Below the pieces are notes generated by a model. It did no database searches and was not told the origin of the DNA. It saw only the letters and a list, made by a program, of their open reading frames with translations. DNA of 64,000 bases from an uncultured virus (IMG/VR IMGVR_UViG_3300035502_001146) (lineage: Duplodnaviria; Heunggongvirae; Uroviricota; Caudoviricetes). Made by a program: the position numbers and the translations under genes. Every line of letters begins with the position of its first letter. Positions within the stretch are counted from its first letter, which is position 1. Location: the IMG/VR virus record IMGVR_UViG_3300035502_001146; one strand, 5' to 3'. Below, piece by piece: positions 169 to 41,188 of this stretch.

Positions 169-786
169 TCAGTCCTTTCTTATTGTTTGTATTAATTCTT
201 TTATTTTATTATAACTTTTAAAACCGTTTTCCTCAACTGATGAGCTTAAATCAATCACTTGTGGATGTACGGTTTTGTATGCTTTTATTATATTTTCACT
301 ATTTATACCGCCTGCAAGTACTGTGTTGTGCTTTTTTGCAAAGGCGGTTGCAATCTCCCAGTTGAAGGTCTTGCCCGTGCCGCCACGCTCTTTGGCGTTG
401 TAGGCATCAAGCACAAAGGCTGTTGCATTTGTGTATTTCGCTGCTTTTGCAAGGCTGTCACCGTCTTTAACGGCTATTGCTTTCCAAACCGTTTGACGTA
501 TTTTTCCACAATCCTCATTTGTTTCGTCGGAGTGCAACTGGCAGATATCAAGCCCGACTTCATCGGCTATGTGCCGTATATCCTCTATACTTTGGTCGGC
601 AAACACACCAACAGTTTTAATATCGGGACGGAGACGTTTTTTTATTGCTTTTGCCGTTTGTATGTCAATCTGTCTTTTACTCTTTGCAAACACAAAGCCG
701 ACATATTTTATCTCCTCAAACTCGTTTACATACTCTGCATCCTCGGTTCGTCTAAGTCCGCAAATCTTGATTTTTATATTATTCAT
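169..786 (-). CDS. trpF: Phosphoribosylanthranilate isomerase
   Basis: Motifs KIKICGL, GFVF-SKRQI, VGVF, QLH, GGTGKTFNW, LAGGI, IDLSSSVE. Confidence 0.95.
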   Translation of the reverse strand: MNNIKIKICGLRRTEDAEYVNEFEEIKYVGFVFAKSKRQIDIQTAKAIKKRLRPDIKTVGVFADQSIEDIRHIADEVGLDICQLHSDETNEDCGKIRQTVWKAIAVKDGDSLAKAAKYTNATAFVLDAYNAKERGGTGKTFNWEIATAFAKKHNTVLAGGINSENIIKAYKTVHPQVIDLSSSVEENGFKSYNKIKELIQTIRKD

Positions 787-875
787 AAAAAATTACCAAA
801 TTCTTTTATCTTATAAGTTTTTTTGCAATACAGCTAATGTTTGATTGGCATTCTCACCACAAAAATTTATTTATT

Positions 876-1228
876 GTTTTAACACACACATATATAAGTT
901 ACAACCAAAAAACGGTGGTAACTATATGTCTCAAATTTCAATACATATATATGTATAAATTGCAACAGTGTTGATGTATTACTTTGTGATGTTACTTTTG
1001 AATCTCAATACATATATGTGTATAAGTTGCAACAAAGAAGAAAACGATATAAAAGATATAAAGCAAATCTCAATACATATATGTGTATAAGTTGCAACGT
1101 CAAGAAGCCGATTGTGTTGTGTACTGTTGTAATCTCAATACATATATGTGTATAAGTTGCAACACATATTTTGACCCTAAAGTTGTAGCCGACAGAATCT
1201 CAATACATATATGTGTATAAGTTGCAAC
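876..1228 (-). CRISPR. CRISPR array 1; 33-nt repeat GTTGCAACTTATACACATATATGTATTGAGATT (minus strand), 5 spacers
   Basis: Identical repeats at 1001-1033, 1066-1098, 1131-1163 and 1196-1228; variant at 934-966; degenerate copy at ~876-905; spacers of 32, 32, 32, 34 and 28 nt; degeneracy increases away from the leader. Confidence 0.95.
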
Positions 1229-1420
1229 AACAAAATTGCACAAAAAATATTCAATTTTTTAACTATTATTTATTTGTGTTAAATAGATGATATATAAACA
1301 ACAAATTACAAAAGTTATTTATTATTAAACGAATATTAACTCTTGTACAATTTTATAGGTGCGAACCCCAATTTCAAACGCTTAAAATCAGCATTAGATT
1401 TTAAGGATTCGCACTTATAT
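1229..1420 (-). promoter_or_regulatory. CRISPR leader 1 with GTGCGAA...TTCGCAC inverted repeat (type I-C-like)
   Basis: GTGCGAA at 1359-1365 and TTCGCAC at 1408-1414; homologous to 3984-4170. Confidence 0.7.
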
Positions 1421-1424
1421 TTTT

Positions 1425-1626
1425 TAATCACAACATTACTATATATATGCCTTGTTTGTACACAAAATTCTTCTCAGCTTACTAATTATAAACACAATGT
1501 TATAAAAGCAAGACAGCACTAAAACTTTTTCCAAACAAGCTTCATTACCAAGGACAGTAATCTATCCATTAACGGTAATATTTAAAGAAGGAGTTGAGAT
1601 TCTCCTACTGTTCTTTTTCAAGAACA
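1425..1626 (-). ncRNA. Putative tracrRNA 1 (~200 nt)
   Basis: Own TTGACA-17-TATAAT promoter; loop AATCTCAA (1594-1601) complementary to the repeat 3' end TTGAGATT; imperfect anti-repeat at 1427-1450; stems covary with copy 2. Confidence 0.8.
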
Positions 1627-1631
1627 AATAT

Positions 1632-1660
1632 ATTATACCATACTTTTTAAACTTTGTCAA
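1632..1660 (-). promoter_or_regulatory. Sigma70/SigA promoter of tracrRNA 1
   Basis: TTGACA at 1655-1660, 17-bp spacer, TGnTATAAT with -10 at 1632-1637. Confidence 0.85.
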
Positions 1661-1671
1661 TAGTTTTTAAA

Positions 1672-3348
1672 TTATAATTCTGAAAAATCTTTTAACCCTA
1701 AACTTGATACCTTATGAGTAGAATTATCATTTTTAAGCTCTCTGATTACTTCATCGTGCATTTTATCGAAATTAGCAAAACCGTCAATACATTCCTGCCT
1801 ATTAAAAGTTTCCAAATCAGGATTGATGTGACTAATACAATAAGCTGCATATAAGTCACGTTGATACTTTTTACCATCAATAGTTTTAAACCTTTTGCTT
1901 AAGGGCATTTTAACGTAAGTATTATCTACGTGGTTATATTGACTTGCTTTAGCTTTTTTAGTGTTTATTTTAATAAGTTCTTTATTGAAATAACCAAGTT
2001 TCCTATTTAAGATATCCAATGCCTTTGAAGGAGCTTTATTAGCCAAAGACTTACCAAATCTCTTTTTACGGTTAAACTTACCCTTAGAATTTTTAGTAGT
2101 CTTTTTAGCCTTTTTCTGTAATGCTTTGAAATCCATATCTTCTACATAAAACTCATCGCCCATTCCAATAATTTCATTAGCAAGTGTTTCGTGTGAAAGT
2201 GTTCTTAAATCGGCTTGCTTTCTGAAAAGCTCTTTTCTTTCAGCTGCTAATTTTTTATAGTTGTTTGATTGTTTCCACTTACGTTTTTCTCCTTCTTTTA
2301 GTGTAACAAGAGTTCCATCTTCATTAAAGTTATCAGGGTTAGTAGCTCTTCTACTTCTATCCATTTTTCTATTAATTATTCTGAGCTGATTTTGAATATC
2401 TTGTGCTCCTTTTGCAAGCTCTTCCAATTTTAATTCTCTATCACTAGATACTGCAATAGTTTGAGTACCAATATCAATACCAACCTTACCGTTGCCCATA
2501 AGGCGATTATAATTAGTAGGTGGAATACCATTCAATGTTGCCTGTACAAAAAATCTATCTTTCTTTTTTATACTCTTGCGAACAATTCTACACCTAATTA
2601 TTTTGTTATTGTTTAAAGCTTCTATAATGTAGTTATTATTTTTAGGGAGCTTAATAGGATAATCTTTTTTCATATAGGTTACGCAATTCTTTTCAAGGTC
2701 TAACTTAACAGCTTGATTTTTAGAACTGCCATTTATAGAATCAACAGTATTATAACGCTTGAAATGGAATCTTTTGCCATTGCCCCATAAGTTTTTATCG
2801 TAAGCTCTCCAAATATCGTCTCTAATACTTTCAGCTGTTTTAGAATGTATATTAAAATGAGAATATACTTTTTGAACATCTTTGTCAAAATCATATTTTG
2901 AAATTCTATATTCTTTTAACAATTCATTTTTTATATTATTAAACTCAGGTTTAATCAATTTAAATTCATCATTTAATTTCTTTTTTTCTGCTGCAAGTAT
3001 TTTTGTCTGAACTGCAATATCTTTCTTCTTATTATTTAAATCAATAATTTCTTCGTTAGACAAATTATTATTTTTTAAAAGTTCATTTATCTCAGCTATC
3101 TCATTATTCAACTCATTTATTTGATTTTTATAATCATTAATAGGCTTCCAATACTTTTCAGTAGTTTTTTCTATATACTTATACTTCTTAGTCTTTTGCA
3201 TTTCTTTATATCTTTTTAATGTTATACTAAGAACCGTATTATATACCTTTCTACAATCTTCCAATTTCTTATTTAAGAAATCAATTTGGAATTTTTCAAG
3301 GTTCAAAGGTATTTGTACTACAAAGCATTTCTTTTCTGATTTAGCCAT
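1672..3348 (-). CDS. tnpB: CRISPR-associated TnpB/Cas12f-like RNA-guided RuvC nuclease, 558 aa
   Basis: RuvC-I GIDIG, RuvC-II YVEDMDF, RuvC-III QRDLYAA; bridge-helix segment RKMDRSRRATNP; N-terminal coiled-coil insertion; own promoter at 3394-3422. Confidence 0.9.
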   Translation of the reverse strand: MAKSEKKCFVVQIPLNLEKFQIDFLNKKLEDCRKVYNTVLSITLKRYKEMQKTKKYKYIEKTTEKYWKPINDYKNQINELNNEIAEINELLKNNNLSNEEIIDLNNKKKDIAVQTKILAAEKKKLNDEFKLIKPEFNNIKNELLKEYRISKYDFDKDVQKVYSHFNIHSKTAESIRDDIWRAYDKNLWGNGKRFHFKRYNTVDSINGSSKNQAVKLDLEKNCVTYMKKDYPIKLPKNNNYIIEALNNNKIIRCRIVRKSIKKKDRFFVQATLNGIPPTNYNRLMGNGKVGIDIGTQTIAVSSDRELKLEELAKGAQDIQNQLRIINRKMDRSRRATNPDNFNEDGTLVTLKEGEKRKWKQSNNYKKLAAERKELFRKQADLRTLSHETLANEIIGMGDEFYVEDMDFKALQKKAKKTTKNSKGKFNRKKRFGKSLANKAPSKALDILNRKLGYFNKELIKINTKKAKASQYNHVDNTYVKMPLSKRFKTIDGKKYQRDLYAAYCISHINPDLETFNRQECIDGFANFDKMHDEVIRELKNDNSTHKVSSLGLKDFSEL

Positions 3349-3537
3349 TTTTATTTCCTCCTTTTAATATTTTAGTATTTTGTCTATGCTTGTATTATAT
3401 CACAAATTCTATTATTTGTCAAGTATTTTTTAACAATAAAAAAGAACTTAGTGGTAAAACTAAGCTCTTTTTGAATTGTAATTTATTTGCAAGGAGGATT
3501 ATTACAAAATGGCAAAATGTATAATCAATTAAATAAA

Positions 3538-3756
3538 TTACAATGTATTTATGAAATCTTTAATTGTTTTTAAGTCATCAGGATTATGAGTAACAACCTC
3601 TACTGGTAAAGAAAAGTCCAAAGAGAAAAGACCCATAATAGACTTACCGTCTACTATATATCTATCGGATTTTACTTCAACATCACCGTTGCATTTATTA
3701 GTTGTATTTACAAAATCCTTAACTGTTTGAATATTATTAAAAGTTATTGTCATCAT
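3538..3756 (-). CDS. HPr-like protein (Ser46 motif retained, no His15 motif)
   Basis: VDGKSIMGLFSL motif; 72 aa. Confidence 0.8.
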   Translation of the reverse strand: MMTITFNNIQTVKDFVNTTNKCNGDVEVKSDRYIVDGKSIMGLFSLDFSLPVEVVTHNPDDLKTIKDFINTL

Positions 3757-3879
3757 TTTCTACCTCCCTTTTTATTTTTATATATTATATATATAAATAA
3801 AAACAAAAGTTAAACAAAATAATAAAAATTTTATTTTAATTTTATCAAATCAACATATGCAACTTACAATGATAATTCA

Positions 3880-3983
3880 ATTACAATACATATACATATA
3901 CATATATAAATTGCAACGTGAATGATTATGAGGAAAATAATAACAGCACATATTCCAATACATATACATATATAAATTGCAAC
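3880..3983 (-). CRISPR. CRISPR mini-array 2; repeat GTTGCAATTTATATATGTATATGTATTGGAAT, 1 spacer
   Basis: Repeat at 3952-3983; degenerate repeat with a 6-nt duplication at 3880-3917; spacer 3918-3951; flank homologous to the array 1 leader. Confidence 0.8.
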
Positions 3984-4172
3984 TGCAACATTGCACAAGA
4001 ATATTCAATTTTTGAAATTTATTTTAATCACAACAAATAAATGATATGTAAATAACTTTCCTATAAAAGCTATTTGTAATCAAAAAATATCACCTTTTGT
4101 GCAAAATTGCAGGTGCGAATCTAATTTTAAAATATATAAGAACAATATTCTTTTTTTAAGATTCGCACTTGC
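3984..4172 (-). promoter_or_regulatory. CRISPR leader 2
   Basis: GTGCGAATCT at 4113-4122 and AGATTCGCAC at 4159-4168; homologous to leader 1. Confidence 0.7.
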
Positions 4173-4177
4173 ATTTT

Positions 4178-4380
4178 TAATTGCAATTTTATTATATATG
4201 CCTTGTTTGTACGCAAAGTCCTTCTCAGTTTACTAATTATAAACATAATGTTATAAAAAACAAATAGTACTAAGACTTTTTCCAAAACAAGCTTTATTGT
4301 CAAAGAAAGCAATCTTTCCATTAACGACAATATTTAAGGGAGGAGTTGAAATTCCCCTACCGTTCTCTCTTTCAAGAACA
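4178..4380 (-). ncRNA. Putative tracrRNA 2
   Basis: Diverged copy of 1425-1626; promoter at 4386-4414; loop AATTTCAA at 4346-4353; anti-repeat at 4180-4201. Confidence 0.8.
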
Positions 4381-4429
4381 GTTATATTATATCACACTTT
4401 CAATCTTTTGTCAATAGTTTTTAAAAAAA

Positions 4430-4840
4430 TTATTGAGCATATTTATAAATAAAATTATCTTCTGTTTCTGTAAAGTTTCTACTTAACTTATTATTATGCT
4501 TAACAATTTTTATTTCATCATAATTAAAAAACCAATCTGTAGAATAAACGCTATTTTTATCATCATTTTTAAGCAACCTAATTCTTAACTTATCTTTCTT
4601 AACCGCAGGGCAAATAAATATACCAAATTTTTTAATATTAGGTATATAAACAATATCTCCTGATTTAATTCTTTTCTTATATCCACTCCACCATTCTAAA
4701 TTAATATTTTTATCTGTTACTAAACCATTTATTATCTCTGATAAAGATGTATTAGATGCGTTTTCTTTCTCTACATAATTGTTCATTAAATAATTTTTAA
4801 ATTCATTTGTAATACTTTCAACTTCATTAATACTAAGCAT
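4430..4840 (-). CDS. Hypothetical protein
   Basis: 136-aa ORF with AGGAG RBS. Confidence 0.7.
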   Translation of the reverse strand: MLSINEVESITNEFKNYLMNNYVEKENASNTSLSEIINGLVTDKNINLEWWSGYKKRIKSGDIVYIPNIKKFGIFICPAVKKDKLRIRLLKNDDKNSVYSTDWFFNYDEIKIVKHNNKLSRNFTETEDNFIYKYAQ

Positions 4841-11330: not shown

Positions 11331-11481
11331 AAAATATTATATCACAAATATTTTATAATGTCAAGACATAAATTTAAAAACAAACATATTTTCTATTTTT
11401 TATAGACCTCAATTTTTTATTTATATAATAACAAGCGAAATATTTTTTGCTTTAATACATTAAGACATTCGAGGTGTGTAT

Positions 11482-12882
11482 ATGAATAAAAAATATTATG
11501 TATTAGATACAAACATCTTATTAGATGACCCACAAAGTATTTATAAATTTGAAGATAATATAGTTATACTTACAGAAGCTGTTATTGAAGAAATTGATAA
11601 TTTTAAAAAGGGTAAAAAAGATATCAATAATAACGCAAGAGCTGTAAGTAGAGAAATAAATAAATTAAGAGAAAAAGGTAAGTTAGAAGATACTACTTTA
11701 ATTGATGGTATTCGTATAAATGAAATTGATGATTCTTATGGTATATTAAAGATTGAGAATAATCATTACAATATGACTTTACCTGAGAGTTGGGAAAAAT
11801 CTAAGAGCGATAATAGAATTATTCAGGTTGCTAAATTCTTTAAAGAGTCAGGCGAAAATGTAATAATTATAAGTAAAGATATAAATGTAAAAATCAAAGC
11901 TGACATAATGGGGATTACAGCAGAAGATTATGAAAATACACAGGTTGATAATGAATATAAAGGCAGAGCTGAAATCTATATATCTGAGAATTATATAAAT
12001 CAAGCTCTTAGTAATGGTAATAAAATTAAAATTGATGAAATAGATAATATATATAATGAATTGGGTGAATTAAGTAATAGAGAATTTTATCCTAATGAAT
12101 ATTTACTTATACATAAAATAGAAGATAGTAATTCTACCTTAATGGGAATAATAACAAAAGATTGTAAAGAAATAGAATTTATATTAAATGAATATCATCC
12201 TTATGGTATAACAGGTAAGAATATAGGTCAGAAATTTGCTATTGATGCAATGATGAGAAGTGCAGAAGATATACCATTGGTTATACTTCAAGGTGGTAGC
12301 GGTACAGGTAAAGACTTTATTACTTTAGCTTGTGGATTAGAACAAACCTTTAATGGATATGCTGATTATAGAAGAATTTTAATAACAAGAGAAGTAGAGA
12401 GCTTGGGTAAAGATATAGGTTATTTACCTGGTACAGAAGAAGAAAAGATAAATCCATTTTTAAGAGGCTTTATGGATAACTTAGAAGCTTTAGTGGATAG
12501 TAATGAAAAAGAAAGATATAAGAATGAGAAAGAATTAAAAGGTAAGGTACAATACTTATTTGACCAGAATATAATTACAGCAGAAGCTATTGCTTATATG
12601 AGAGGTAGAAGTATTAATAAACAGTTTATTATTATTGATGAAGCTCAGAACTGTACTGTAAGTCAAATGAAAGGTATTTTAACAAGAATTGGTATTGATA
12701 CTAAGATAATTATATTAGGAGATATAAACCAAATAGATAATATATATCTTGACGAAAAGAACAATGGGTTAAGTTGGGCAAGTGAATTAATGAAGGATAG
12801 TCCTTTAGCTTGTCAGATTACATTGAAAGACGGTGAAAGTGTTAGAAGTGATTTGGTAAAAGATATATTAAATAGACTTTAA
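11482..12882 (+). CDS. phoH: PIN-PhoH fusion protein (PhoH2/YlaK type)
   Basis: PIN motif YVLDTNILL; Walker A GGSGTGK; GYLPG, YMRGRS, IIDEAQN, GDINQID. Confidence 0.92.
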   Translation: MNKKYYVLDTNILLDDPQSIYKFEDNIVILTEAVIEEIDNFKKGKKDINNNARAVSREINKLREKGKLEDTTLIDGIRINEIDDSYGILKIENNHYNMTLPESWEKSKSDNRIIQVAKFFKESGENVIIISKDINVKIKADIMGITAEDYENTQVDNEYKGRAEIYISENYINQALSNGNKIKIDEIDNIYNELGELSNREFYPNEYLLIHKIEDSNSTLMGIITKDCKEIEFILNEYHPYGITGKNIGQKFAIDAMMRSAEDIPLVILQGGSGTGKDFITLACGLEQTFNGYADYRRILITREVESLGKDIGYLPGTEEEKINPFLRGFMDNLEALVDSNEKERYKNEKELKGKVQYLFDQNIITAEAIAYMRGRSINKQFIIIDEAQNCTVSQMKGILTRIGIDTKIIILGDINQIDNIYLDEKNNGLSWASELMKDSPLACQITLKDGESVRSDLVKDILNRL

Positions 12883-39635: not shown

Positions 39636-40042
39636 GTATAAATTGCAAGGGTATAAAAATACCCTTGCTTTTTTTTGCAGCATACTTATTAAATGATTTA
39701 TTAAGATATCAACATTGTTAAATTTTTAACAAAATCTATTTACCCTCTGCGGAACAGTACCATTATTATTTTTCTTTATATATTTTTTTCTGTATATAAT
39801 AGTAAATATTTTTCGATATAAAAATTTCCTTCTATATAATTAAGAAAAACAATATTAGAAAAATATGCAGCTCATCGCAGCTGTATAACATAAACATTAT
39901 AATGATTATAAATATTAAGTATTTAAAAAACTATTGACATTTAACAGAATTTGTAGTATACTATAATCACATTAAGGGTAACGCAAATAACAAAACCTTA
40001 ATGAATAACCTATATTTTTTATTTATGAGAGGAGTCTTAATT

Positions 40043-41188
40043 ATGAAAAAAATGACTATTACAGCAAAAGAAATGAAGAGCGTTATCGAAAAGGTGGCAA
40101 CGGCTATTGATAAAAAATCAGCATATATACCTTTTTTATACATAAACTTTATAAGTGATGCAGACGGAGTAAAAGTTATCGCTGGACATAGCGAACAGGC
40201 ACTTGAAATCACTCTTAATGAGTGTACGGGCGATATTGACAGTTTTGCTATTGACTTTTCAGATATTAAAGCAATAACAAAATTGAGCGGTACGCTGACT
40301 TTAAGCTATGATAGTGAAAAGAGTGTTTTAAATGTTACTTGTGGCAAAAAGTCTTTAAGCCTTAAAGGCTATGAAGTAACAGACTTTAACCACTTGAATA
40401 ACGATAGCGAAAAAGATATGTTTACAGCTAACACAAATTGGTTTATTGATACACTTAATAACCTTGTGATGTTTACATCACCCGAAAAAGCAAGACCTTC
40501 ATTGCAATGTGTAAACTTTAATAGTGCAGAAAAGCAAGTTGAAGCTTGTGACGGCTTTAGGGCGGTAACAAGAAAAATGAATATCATTGATATTAAGAAT
40601 ACTGACAGCGTACTTATTCCACAGATTGCAGTGCATATTCTTAAAAAGGCTATTGGAAAAAATACAGATAATACTATTACAGTGATACAAGGCAATAAGA
40701 GTGTTATTGTAAAAGGTGTTGACTTTAAGTATACAGTTCAAAAAGTCAATGGTAATTTTCTTAATATCAATGCACTTTTCGCTAACAGGACTGCAGAAAA
40801 TAGTGCTATGATAGATAAAAAGGACTTTATAAGCGTTTTGAAGTATGCAAATGACATTGCAGATACTGAAAAGCATAGACTTGTTATTCACGCTAACAAC
40901 AACACATTGTACTCATTTATCACAACGGGTAAAATTGAGAGTATGGATGAAATAACCGCAACAAATGTAAATATCAATAACAATTTGTACATCGGCTATA
41001 ATGCAAGATATTTGCTTGAAATATTCTCAATTCTTGATGTTGATGCAGTTGAGTACAATCCAACGGGCGATAAATCAATCACATTTTTTAGCGGTAATGA
41101 GTATAATGCTTTGGTACTTCCAGTATTGTTACAAGGTTCTTATAACTGTGAGAGTAGTGACTTAAAGGCTTTTAAAAGCAAGTTTTAA
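40043..41188 (+). CDS. dnaN: DNA polymerase III beta sliding clamp homolog
   Basis: RPSLQCV, ACDGFR, IGYNARYLLE and terminal LVLPV motifs; ~380 aa; start after GAGGAG. Confidence 0.8.
   Translation: MKKMTITAKEMKSVIEKVATAIDKKSAYIPFLYINFISDADGVKVIAGHSEQALEITLNECTGDIDSFAIDFSDIKAITKLSGTLTLSYDSEKSVLNVTCGKKSLSLKGYEVTDFNHLNNDSEKDMFTANTNWFIDTLNNLVMFTSPEKARPSLQCVNFNSAEKQVEACDGFRAVTRKMNIIDIKNTDSVLIPQIAVHILKKAIGKNTDNTITVIQGNKSVIVKGVDFKYTVQKVNGNFLNINALFANRTAENSAMIDKKDFISVLKYANDIADTEKHRLVIHANNNTLYSFITTGKIESMDEITATNVNINNNLYIGYNARYLLEIFSILDVDAVEYNPTGDKSITFFSGNEYNALVLPVLLQGSYNCESSDLKAFKSKF

Follow-up and report, generated by a model that had tools for sequence, protein, structure and literature searches.

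Organization of the locus

The sequence analysed here (the window) comprises the opening 64 kb of a linear gut phage contig of 118,565 nt (118.6 kb; G000), which has a G+C content of 26% and is about 65% complete. Two CRISPR cassettes and a nuclease gene lie on its minus strand in the order promoter, RNA block, leader and array 2; promoter and 558-aa gene; promoter, RNA block, leader and array 1. Each unit begins with a perfect sigma-70 promoter (12/12, minus strand), at 1632..1660 with an extended -10 for cassette 1, at 3394..3422 for the nuclease gene and at 4386..4414 for cassette 2; these three are the only 12/12 matches among the 35 sites scored in 780-4500. The window also holds host-like genes for TrpF (PRAI; 169-786), an HPr-like protein (3538-3756), PhoH (11476-12882) and a sliding clamp (40001-41188), of which trpF sits just beyond array 1 and the HPr-like gene between the nuclease promoter and array 2. 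The phage host was sought through trpF, whose best match, at 47%, is uninformative.

The 558-aa protein (1672..3348, minus strand) is predicted to be a TnpB-derived RuvC nuclease and is likely the effector of both cassettes. It has a guided_TnpB match (E 8.8e-18) and 41-48% identity to IS200/IS605-type TnpBs, and the RuvC residues D292, E403 and D498 are invariant in 16 aligned relatives. The nearest relatives are 86% identical, on a 502-kb contig, and 74% identical, followed at about 42% by 486-aa TnpBs, some of which adjoin an IS200-type transposase. Searches of viral and metagenome contigs confirmed no DNA of these relatives and gave neither further arrays of the phage system nor a full genome; among solved structures nothing matched at E<=0.001, and none of the six chains at E<=10 bears the name TranC. 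The protein P0001 nearly matches the nuclease over the N-terminal half but has diverged over the RuvC half, and P0002 shows the reverse, a mosaicism pointing to recombination between nuclease alleles. Elsewhere on G000, translations reveal a 478-aa Cas12f/TnpB-like gene without an array (86435-87871), an IscB-like gene (98524-100014) and a 395-aa TnpB within a terminase-like region (116482-117669).

Candidate tracrRNAs

A structured RNA block, which we regard as a candidate tracrRNA, precedes each leader. Candidate 1 (1420..1626, minus strand) has an anti-repeat near 1427-1451 and a loop at 1594-1601 that is complementary to the 3' end of the repeat; in candidate 2 (4175..4380, minus strand) the anti-repeat lies near 4179-4202 and the loop at 4346-4353. 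Both fold better than shuffled sequences (z -2.2 and -2.8), and a comparison of these two copies only gives five compensated and no broken pairs out of 54; the tracr hairpin loop and the repeat 3' end are altered at the same pair between the cassettes. The anti-repeat duplex beats 200/200 shuffles for tracrRNA 2 with repeat 2, and only 153/200 for tracrRNA 1 with repeat 1. When the candidates were compared with transposon right-end RNA, 9 and 21 of 300 shuffles scored as high as the best of eight comparisons.

Contigs from four of the five listed gut RNA libraries cover 1135-1605, some of them identical to the window, though contigs do not prove transcription; some span the RNA block, the leader and repeat 1. 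The nuclease gene has no cover in four RNA-library contig sets, and such contigs cannot show absence, strand or level.

From its sequence, the locus would work like TranC, the intermediates between TnpB and Cas12, and we consider it TranC-like, a candidate member only. The likeness, as drawn from the available part of the TranC preprint, lies in a compact TnpB-like nuclease, a short array with 32-33-nt repeats, a separate tracrRNA, the lack of adaptation genes of its own and the existence of phage-borne members (bioRxiv 10.64898/2026.03.27.714800). Unlike TranC as described there, the phage locus has two cassettes and a full host-type leader between tracrRNA and array.

Repeats and spacers

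Array 1 (874..1228, minus strand) consists of five 32-nt repeats (1197-1228, 1132-1163, 1067-1098, 1002-1033 and 935-966) and a degenerate sixth (874-905); four of the five are identical and the fifth ends ATTGAAAT. Array 2 (3886..3983, minus strand) has one intact repeat (3952-3983), which ends ATTGGAAT, one spacer and one degenerate repeat. Read with 32-nt repeats, the spacers measure 33, 33, 33, 35 and 29 nt in array 1 and 34 nt in array 2. The base that follows the 32-mer is T in all five array 1 units (1196, 1131, 1066, 1001 and 934) and A in array 2, and the T would mean that the repeat is 33 nt long or that the first base of the spacer is biased. A 33-nt repeat with spacers of 32-34 nt is an equally valid reading; under it the lengths given in the preliminary description (repeats of 32-33 nt, spacers mostly of 32-34 nt) hold, and the 32-nt reading gives spacers mostly of 33-35 nt. 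With the T included, the repeat and the tracr loop can pair over 8 bp.

These arrays have the repeat length (32-33 nt), GT start and spacer length (33-35 nt) of type I-C, whose host spacers measure 33-35 nt in 612 of 721 cases, and the ATTGAAAY end of type I-C is present with one substitution, and exactly in repeat 5. The phage repeat differs by only one transversion from phage-borne I-C-type repeats (L187, L242, L237 and L257). Its predicted hairpin, at -3.1 and -4.9 kcal/mol, compares with -9.1 to -17.0 kcal/mol in 26 host I-C repeats; the phage repeat has thus nearly lost the strong I-C hairpin, which is the substrate of Cas5d.

The loss of the hairpin bears on the proposal that the arrays are mini-arrays serving a host I-C Cascade, with tnpB an unrelated neighbour. 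Phage mini-arrays with host-like repeats are common, according to the accessible part of the published accounts, and the contig has other TnpB and IscB genes. Besides the hairpin, both leaders follow a conserved RNA block that covaries and contains an anti-repeat, and neither a transposase gene beside the nuclease nor an IS-type right end after it was found; we consider this proposal scarcely credible.

Inverted repeat of the leaders

Leader 1 (1229..1414) and leader 2 (3984..4168), both on the minus strand and 70% identical overall, carry exact GTGCGAA and TTCGCAC arms. In leader 1 the near arm (1359..1365) is 130 nt from repeat 1 and the far arm (1408..1414) 42 nt from the near arm; the arms of leader 2 (4113-4119 and 4162-4168) are also 42 nt apart and stand 129 nt from the repeat. 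The pair is therefore where the preliminary description had placed it, about 130 nt from the first repeat in both leaders; the spacing of 42 nt was absent from that account. These two inverted pairs comprise all four occurrences of GTGCGAA in the window, and no further pair, even with one mismatch per arm, exists elsewhere in the contig. When the final 200 nt of leader 1 were shuffled 20,000 times by mononucleotide, an exact pair arose 0 times and a one-mismatch pair 6 times.

The cassettes represent a duplication in which both arms have remained identical, though the gap between them is 57% and the repeat-near part of the leader 69% identical; the RNA blocks share 81%. Across 1259-1435, a variant cassette from the RNA libraries differs by 22 substitutions, all of them outside the arms, and has no indel between the arms; another variant has a different spacer adjoining repeat 1. 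It is very unlikely that the leader is a relic of capture attached to arrays that no longer grow: the short arrays, the off-norm spacing and the single other spacer seen next to repeat 1 would agree with a relic, but three versions of the cassette preserve the arms and their spacing amid divergence of the bases around them, the two cassettes differ in their spacers and the repeats match their own tracr loop.

For comparison with host leaders, we took the DNA surrounding 32 matches to cas8c in 251 Clostridia genomes; 28 regions contain an array and four do not, and one I-C array from a cas1 locus brings the I-C leaders to 29, although the sequence taken for the leader of L169 may lie within its array. 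The inverted pair is found with at most one mismatch per arm in 16 of the 29 (9 exact), always with a gap of 28-29 nt, and five more leaders have its core at a gap of 29 with two mismatches. Its near arm lies 104-137 nt from the repeat, and 125-129 nt in 9/15, which the 130 and 129 nt of the phage leaders fit. Another 79 regions, almost all taken at other cas1 matches, served as the control and yielded 69 arrays tested on both flanks, three rows having been dropped (one I-C, one not CRISPR and one duplicate); judged by their repeat sequences, we take these arrays to be of subtypes I-B, I-E, II and III. Only one of the 69 has the pair, in a loose form and on the trailer side. The GTGCGAA/TTCGCAC pair, defined as a leader feature in this analysis from the same I-C loci, marks Clostridia type I-C leaders and not those of other subtypes, and the leader inverted repeat that the preliminary description had ascribed to type I-C is real.

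The leader 3' ends score 8.1 (leader 1) and 8.6 (leader 2) on an I-C matrix, in the mid-range of leave-one-out I-C scores; 2/70 and 1/70 control flanks, respectively, reach these values. Both leaders also have the T-rich 3' end finishing GCT/GCA that is an I-C-type feature. An ACAT-A/T-tract motif in the inner gap, which was defined after looking, is present in 11/13 canonical and 15/18 tandem-arm I-C leaders (26/31), and, with the same qualification, in 0/2 phage leaders and 0/3 leaders of the type III-linked arrays described below. The repeat-near half of the phage leader aligns to canonical I-C leaders with a mean z of 1.5 and a maximum of 5.2 (n=13), and to type III-linked leaders with 0.25 (n=3).

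The alignment with Clostridia I-C leaders, which had been put forward as a check, is therefore borne out for the arms, the arm-to-repeat distance and the leader 3' end, and the phage arrays share with type I-C the repeat length, GT start, ATTGAAAY-like end and spacer length as well. It breaks down at the spacing, with arms 42 and not 28-29 nt apart, and at the missing inner gap motif, and unlike type I-C the phage has lost the hairpin and has no I-C cas genes. The shift of +13 nt does not correspond to complete turns of the helix, which argues against the I-C reading.

Arm spacing in other arrays

A metagenome scan for exact arms at gaps of 33-50 nt with 32-nt repeats yielded 24 loci, 23 of them with a gap of 41-42 nt. 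Eighteen of the 24 (within L262-L285) are I-C-repeat leaders with two tandem far arms 13 nt apart, which give gaps of 29-30 and 41-42 nt; seven of these adjoin the cas1 of an I-C operon, and all 18 may be one lineage. Since these leaders have a second far arm at 41-42 nt, 42 nt is a register used by I-C leaders. The remaining loci comprise one with arms at 29 and 39, one without an array and four (three distinct) with a gap of 41-42 nt only. The repeats of these last arrays (L269/L273, L276 and L281) start GTTGCAACT, the GTTGCAAC type, as do those of the phage, with the first 9 repeat bases identical. Two of the three distinct arrays adjoin type III genes: L276 (197-8909) is a type III-D operon with Cas10, Csx10-type and Cas7 RAMPs, Csx19 and Csx1, beside an array with an I-C-family leader, a gap of 41 nt and a 32-nt repeat, and L269 adjoins Csx20. 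Named relatives of the L276 Cas10 are from Ruminococcus/Oscillospiraceae. Neither cas1 nor cas2 was found beside the L276 array in its 8 kb, nor cas1 in the available flanking DNA of the sole-41-42 arrays, and an I-C operon with a sole 41-42-nt gap was not among the 24 loci, which represent exact arms and 32-nt repeats only.

Viral contigs scanned at gaps of 24-48 nt gave 26 matches, in which all 17 CRISPR-type leaders have a gap of 28-29 nt; at gaps of 41-42 nt, 29 of 30 loci are chance matches and one, L316, is real. This is a viral two-repeat array (L316:3977-4175, minus strand) flanked by a tRNA gene region and by an IS605-type tnpB; its repeats are of the GTTGCAAC type, and its arm pair, with a 42-nt gap, stands just 47 nt away from the first repeat. 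In genomes, a motif scan of all at gaps of 36-48 nt gave chance hits, with 0/121 near an array among the matches listed, and 301 Clostridia genomes at gaps of 38-46 nt gave six matches, none with the leader pattern, against nine in a reversed control. The GTTGCAAC-type repeat itself occurs as two single matches without an array in 351 genomes of the phylum and 56 of the family, and not at all in the viral contigs; as no genome array with this repeat was found, neither was the cas1 that serves the GTTGCAAC/42 arrays.

The type III-D-linked GTTGCAAC arrays (L276, L269/L273 and L281) resemble those of the phage in their exact arms, sole spacing of 41-42 nt, arm-to-repeat offset of 115-127 nt, 32-nt repeat with the GTTGCAACT start and spacers of 33-37 nt; they differ from them as host arrays beside Cas10 or Csx20, in a GC-rich repeat middle and in having no further leader likeness. 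The phage spacers could thus be inserted by a separate host module dedicated to the GTTGCAAC/42-nt arrays that adjoin III-D operons in Ruminococcus-like bacteria. Such a module need not include Cas4, in which case the prediction of a TTC motif would be void and only some spacers would suit the nuclease. Its appeal lies in the co-occurrence of the sole 41-42-nt spacing with the GTTGCAAC start in L269/L273, L276, L281 and the viral L316, in the III-D genes and Csx20 beside two of these arrays and in the inner I-C gap motif being missing there as in the phage. But the 8 kb of L276 hold no cas1 or cas2, and these arrays may themselves use I-C in trans, which would turn this alternative into the reading that we favour; the gap and near leader show no likeness beyond the arms (z about 0; n=3); and the 3' half of the phage repeat differs by 3-5 transversions from the GTTGCAAC/42 family, against one from I-C-type phage repeats. 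We regard a separate module as unlikely. To judge from the sequence, the phage leader is a mosaic: it agrees with the type III-linked arrays in geometry, in the repeat start and in missing the inner motif, and its repeat-near half and the repeat 3' half are nearer to I-C. Both host classes share the arm family, and an integrase of I-C descent would therefore be their common denominator.

Adaptation genes, protospacers and PAM

No cas1, cas2 or cas4 was detected at E<=1 on the contig, and cas3, cas5, cas8c and cas7 are likewise missing beside the arrays. An element-encoded cas1 of another subtype, which the preliminary description had named as evidence against its proposal, is thus absent from the part of the genome at hand. 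A Cas1-Cas2 of the phage's own, matched to the shifted leader geometry, could lie in the missing part of the genome: the record is linear and incomplete, no capsid or tail gene was identified in it, and the leader geometry departs from the host norm. Nothing cas1-like lies beside the locus, however, TranC loci have no associated accessory genes in the available text of their description (bioRxiv 10.64898/2026.03.27.714800), and phages that combine a TnpB with an I-C-type mini-array, two complete and four partial, are without cas1; we find a phage-encoded integrase quite unlikely.

In several large gut phages (L187:4418-6100, L242, L257, L240 and L256), a different TnpB of 439-468 aa lies directly upstream of an I-C-type two-repeat array; BLAST of these TnpBs against the window nuclease gave no match. 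In L242, L257, L240 and L256 a leader pair with a 28-29-nt gap begins 32-49 nt past the stop codon; L187 has a 95% identical TnpB protein, but its leader differs and its repeat is of the GTTGCAAC type. In L187 and L242, which are complete, and in L240 and L257, which are partial, no cas1 was found. The combination of an unrelated TnpB, an I-C leader and a two-repeat array thus exists in other gut phages too, and the theme recurs.

Nothing credible emerged as a protospacer from a blastn comparison of array 1 with phages and plasmids, from exact scans of viral contigs for two of the six spacers, from 399 Clostridia genomes, where promoter matches dominate and only two candidates were scored per genome, or from 2.6 Mb of fetched loci and five phage records. 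The best matches, to the low-complexity spacer 3, have 6-14 mismatches, and shuffles reach 7. In the opposite direction, 2,514 host spacers gave no match over 23 nt to the contig.

The available parts of several published studies bear on how such arrays could acquire spacers. Most small type V subtypes are described as lacking other cas genes (PMC10691335). The Bacillus halodurans I-C Cas4-Cas1-Cas2 complex trims at GAA, which is TTC on the other strand (PMC6519985). Most I-C leaders have several subtype-specific motifs 100-200 bp upstream, the spacing of which shapes the DNA, and in a type I-F structure Cas2 binds two leader inverted repeats on a bent leader (bioRxiv 10.1101/2023.05.26.542337). 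For plasmid type IV-A3 systems, use of a host I-E module in trans, with a matching PAM, has been shown (bioRxiv 10.1101/2023.06.23.546257), and the same arrangement has been proposed for Cas12r of Thermus Lalka phages (bioRxiv 10.64898/2026.04.20.719267).

Discussion

The leaders bear the I-C signature and the contig has no spacer-inserting genes; it is therefore likely that a host enzyme adds the spacers. On the sequence evidence, we consider it probable that the phage spacers are inserted in trans by a host Cas1-Cas2 descended from type I-C. The preliminary description had assigned this role to a host I-C Cas1-Cas2-Cas4, a proposal that agrees with the arms, their offset, the leader 3' end, the repeat and spacer lengths and the lack of cas1, cas2 and cas4, and that sits less well with the spacing of 42 nt, the missing inner motif, the GTTGCAAC repeats of the sole-42 arrays, two of which adjoin type III genes, and the incompleteness of the contig.

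Our analysis suggests a model in which 1229-1414, the leader of a phage array with a promoter-driven structured RNA block on one side and the first repeat on the other, would allow a host Cas1-Cas2 of I-C descent to add spacers for the predicted TnpB-derived nuclease. The phage may have captured leader and repeat from the host lineage; the repeat would have kept I-C-like ends as its middle drifted towards A/T and came to pair with the tracrRNA. By analogy with type I-F, the integrase may bind the two arms on a bent leader. Processing of a single tracr-leader-array transcript could then supply the nuclease with guides, and the nuclease would cleave the DNA of rival mobile elements; if the host module includes Cas4, the spacers are predicted to carry a 5' TTC motif. 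We further entertain, as possible but doubtful, a wider scheme in which one I-C-derived host integrase, marked by the 42-nt/GTTGCAAC leader class, would feed its own type I arrays, III-D arrays of Ruminococcus-like gut bacteria and a newly arisen phage type V system, the last having become adaptive simply through a captured leader set between the split halves of its guide RNA.

The likeness to Cas12r and IV-A3, as set out in the available portions of those preprints, is that of a CRISPR system on a mobile element that is without cas1 and uses a host type I module in trans; here, unlike there, the donor would be of the I-C family and the evidence is a leader motif. Adaptation in trans by a host module is already in print, which limits the surprise, and the I-C leader motif itself has probably been published as well; the 42-nt leader class is the new element. 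A literature search, which covered subscription papers thinly, found no phage TnpB-type system with an I-C leader and no 42-nt class.

The leader described here would name the family of the donor integrase, which bears on how TnpB-derived type V systems without cas1 obtain their spacers. It leads to two testable predictions, namely which Cas1-Cas2 integrates and whether the PAM of the nuclease matches. The spacings of 29 and 42 nt provide a natural pair for asking whether leader geometry sets the choice of integrase in Firmicutes. The locus also suggests a route from transposon to immunity, in which leader and repeat were captured together and the middle of the repeat would then have been free to co-adapt to the tracrRNA.
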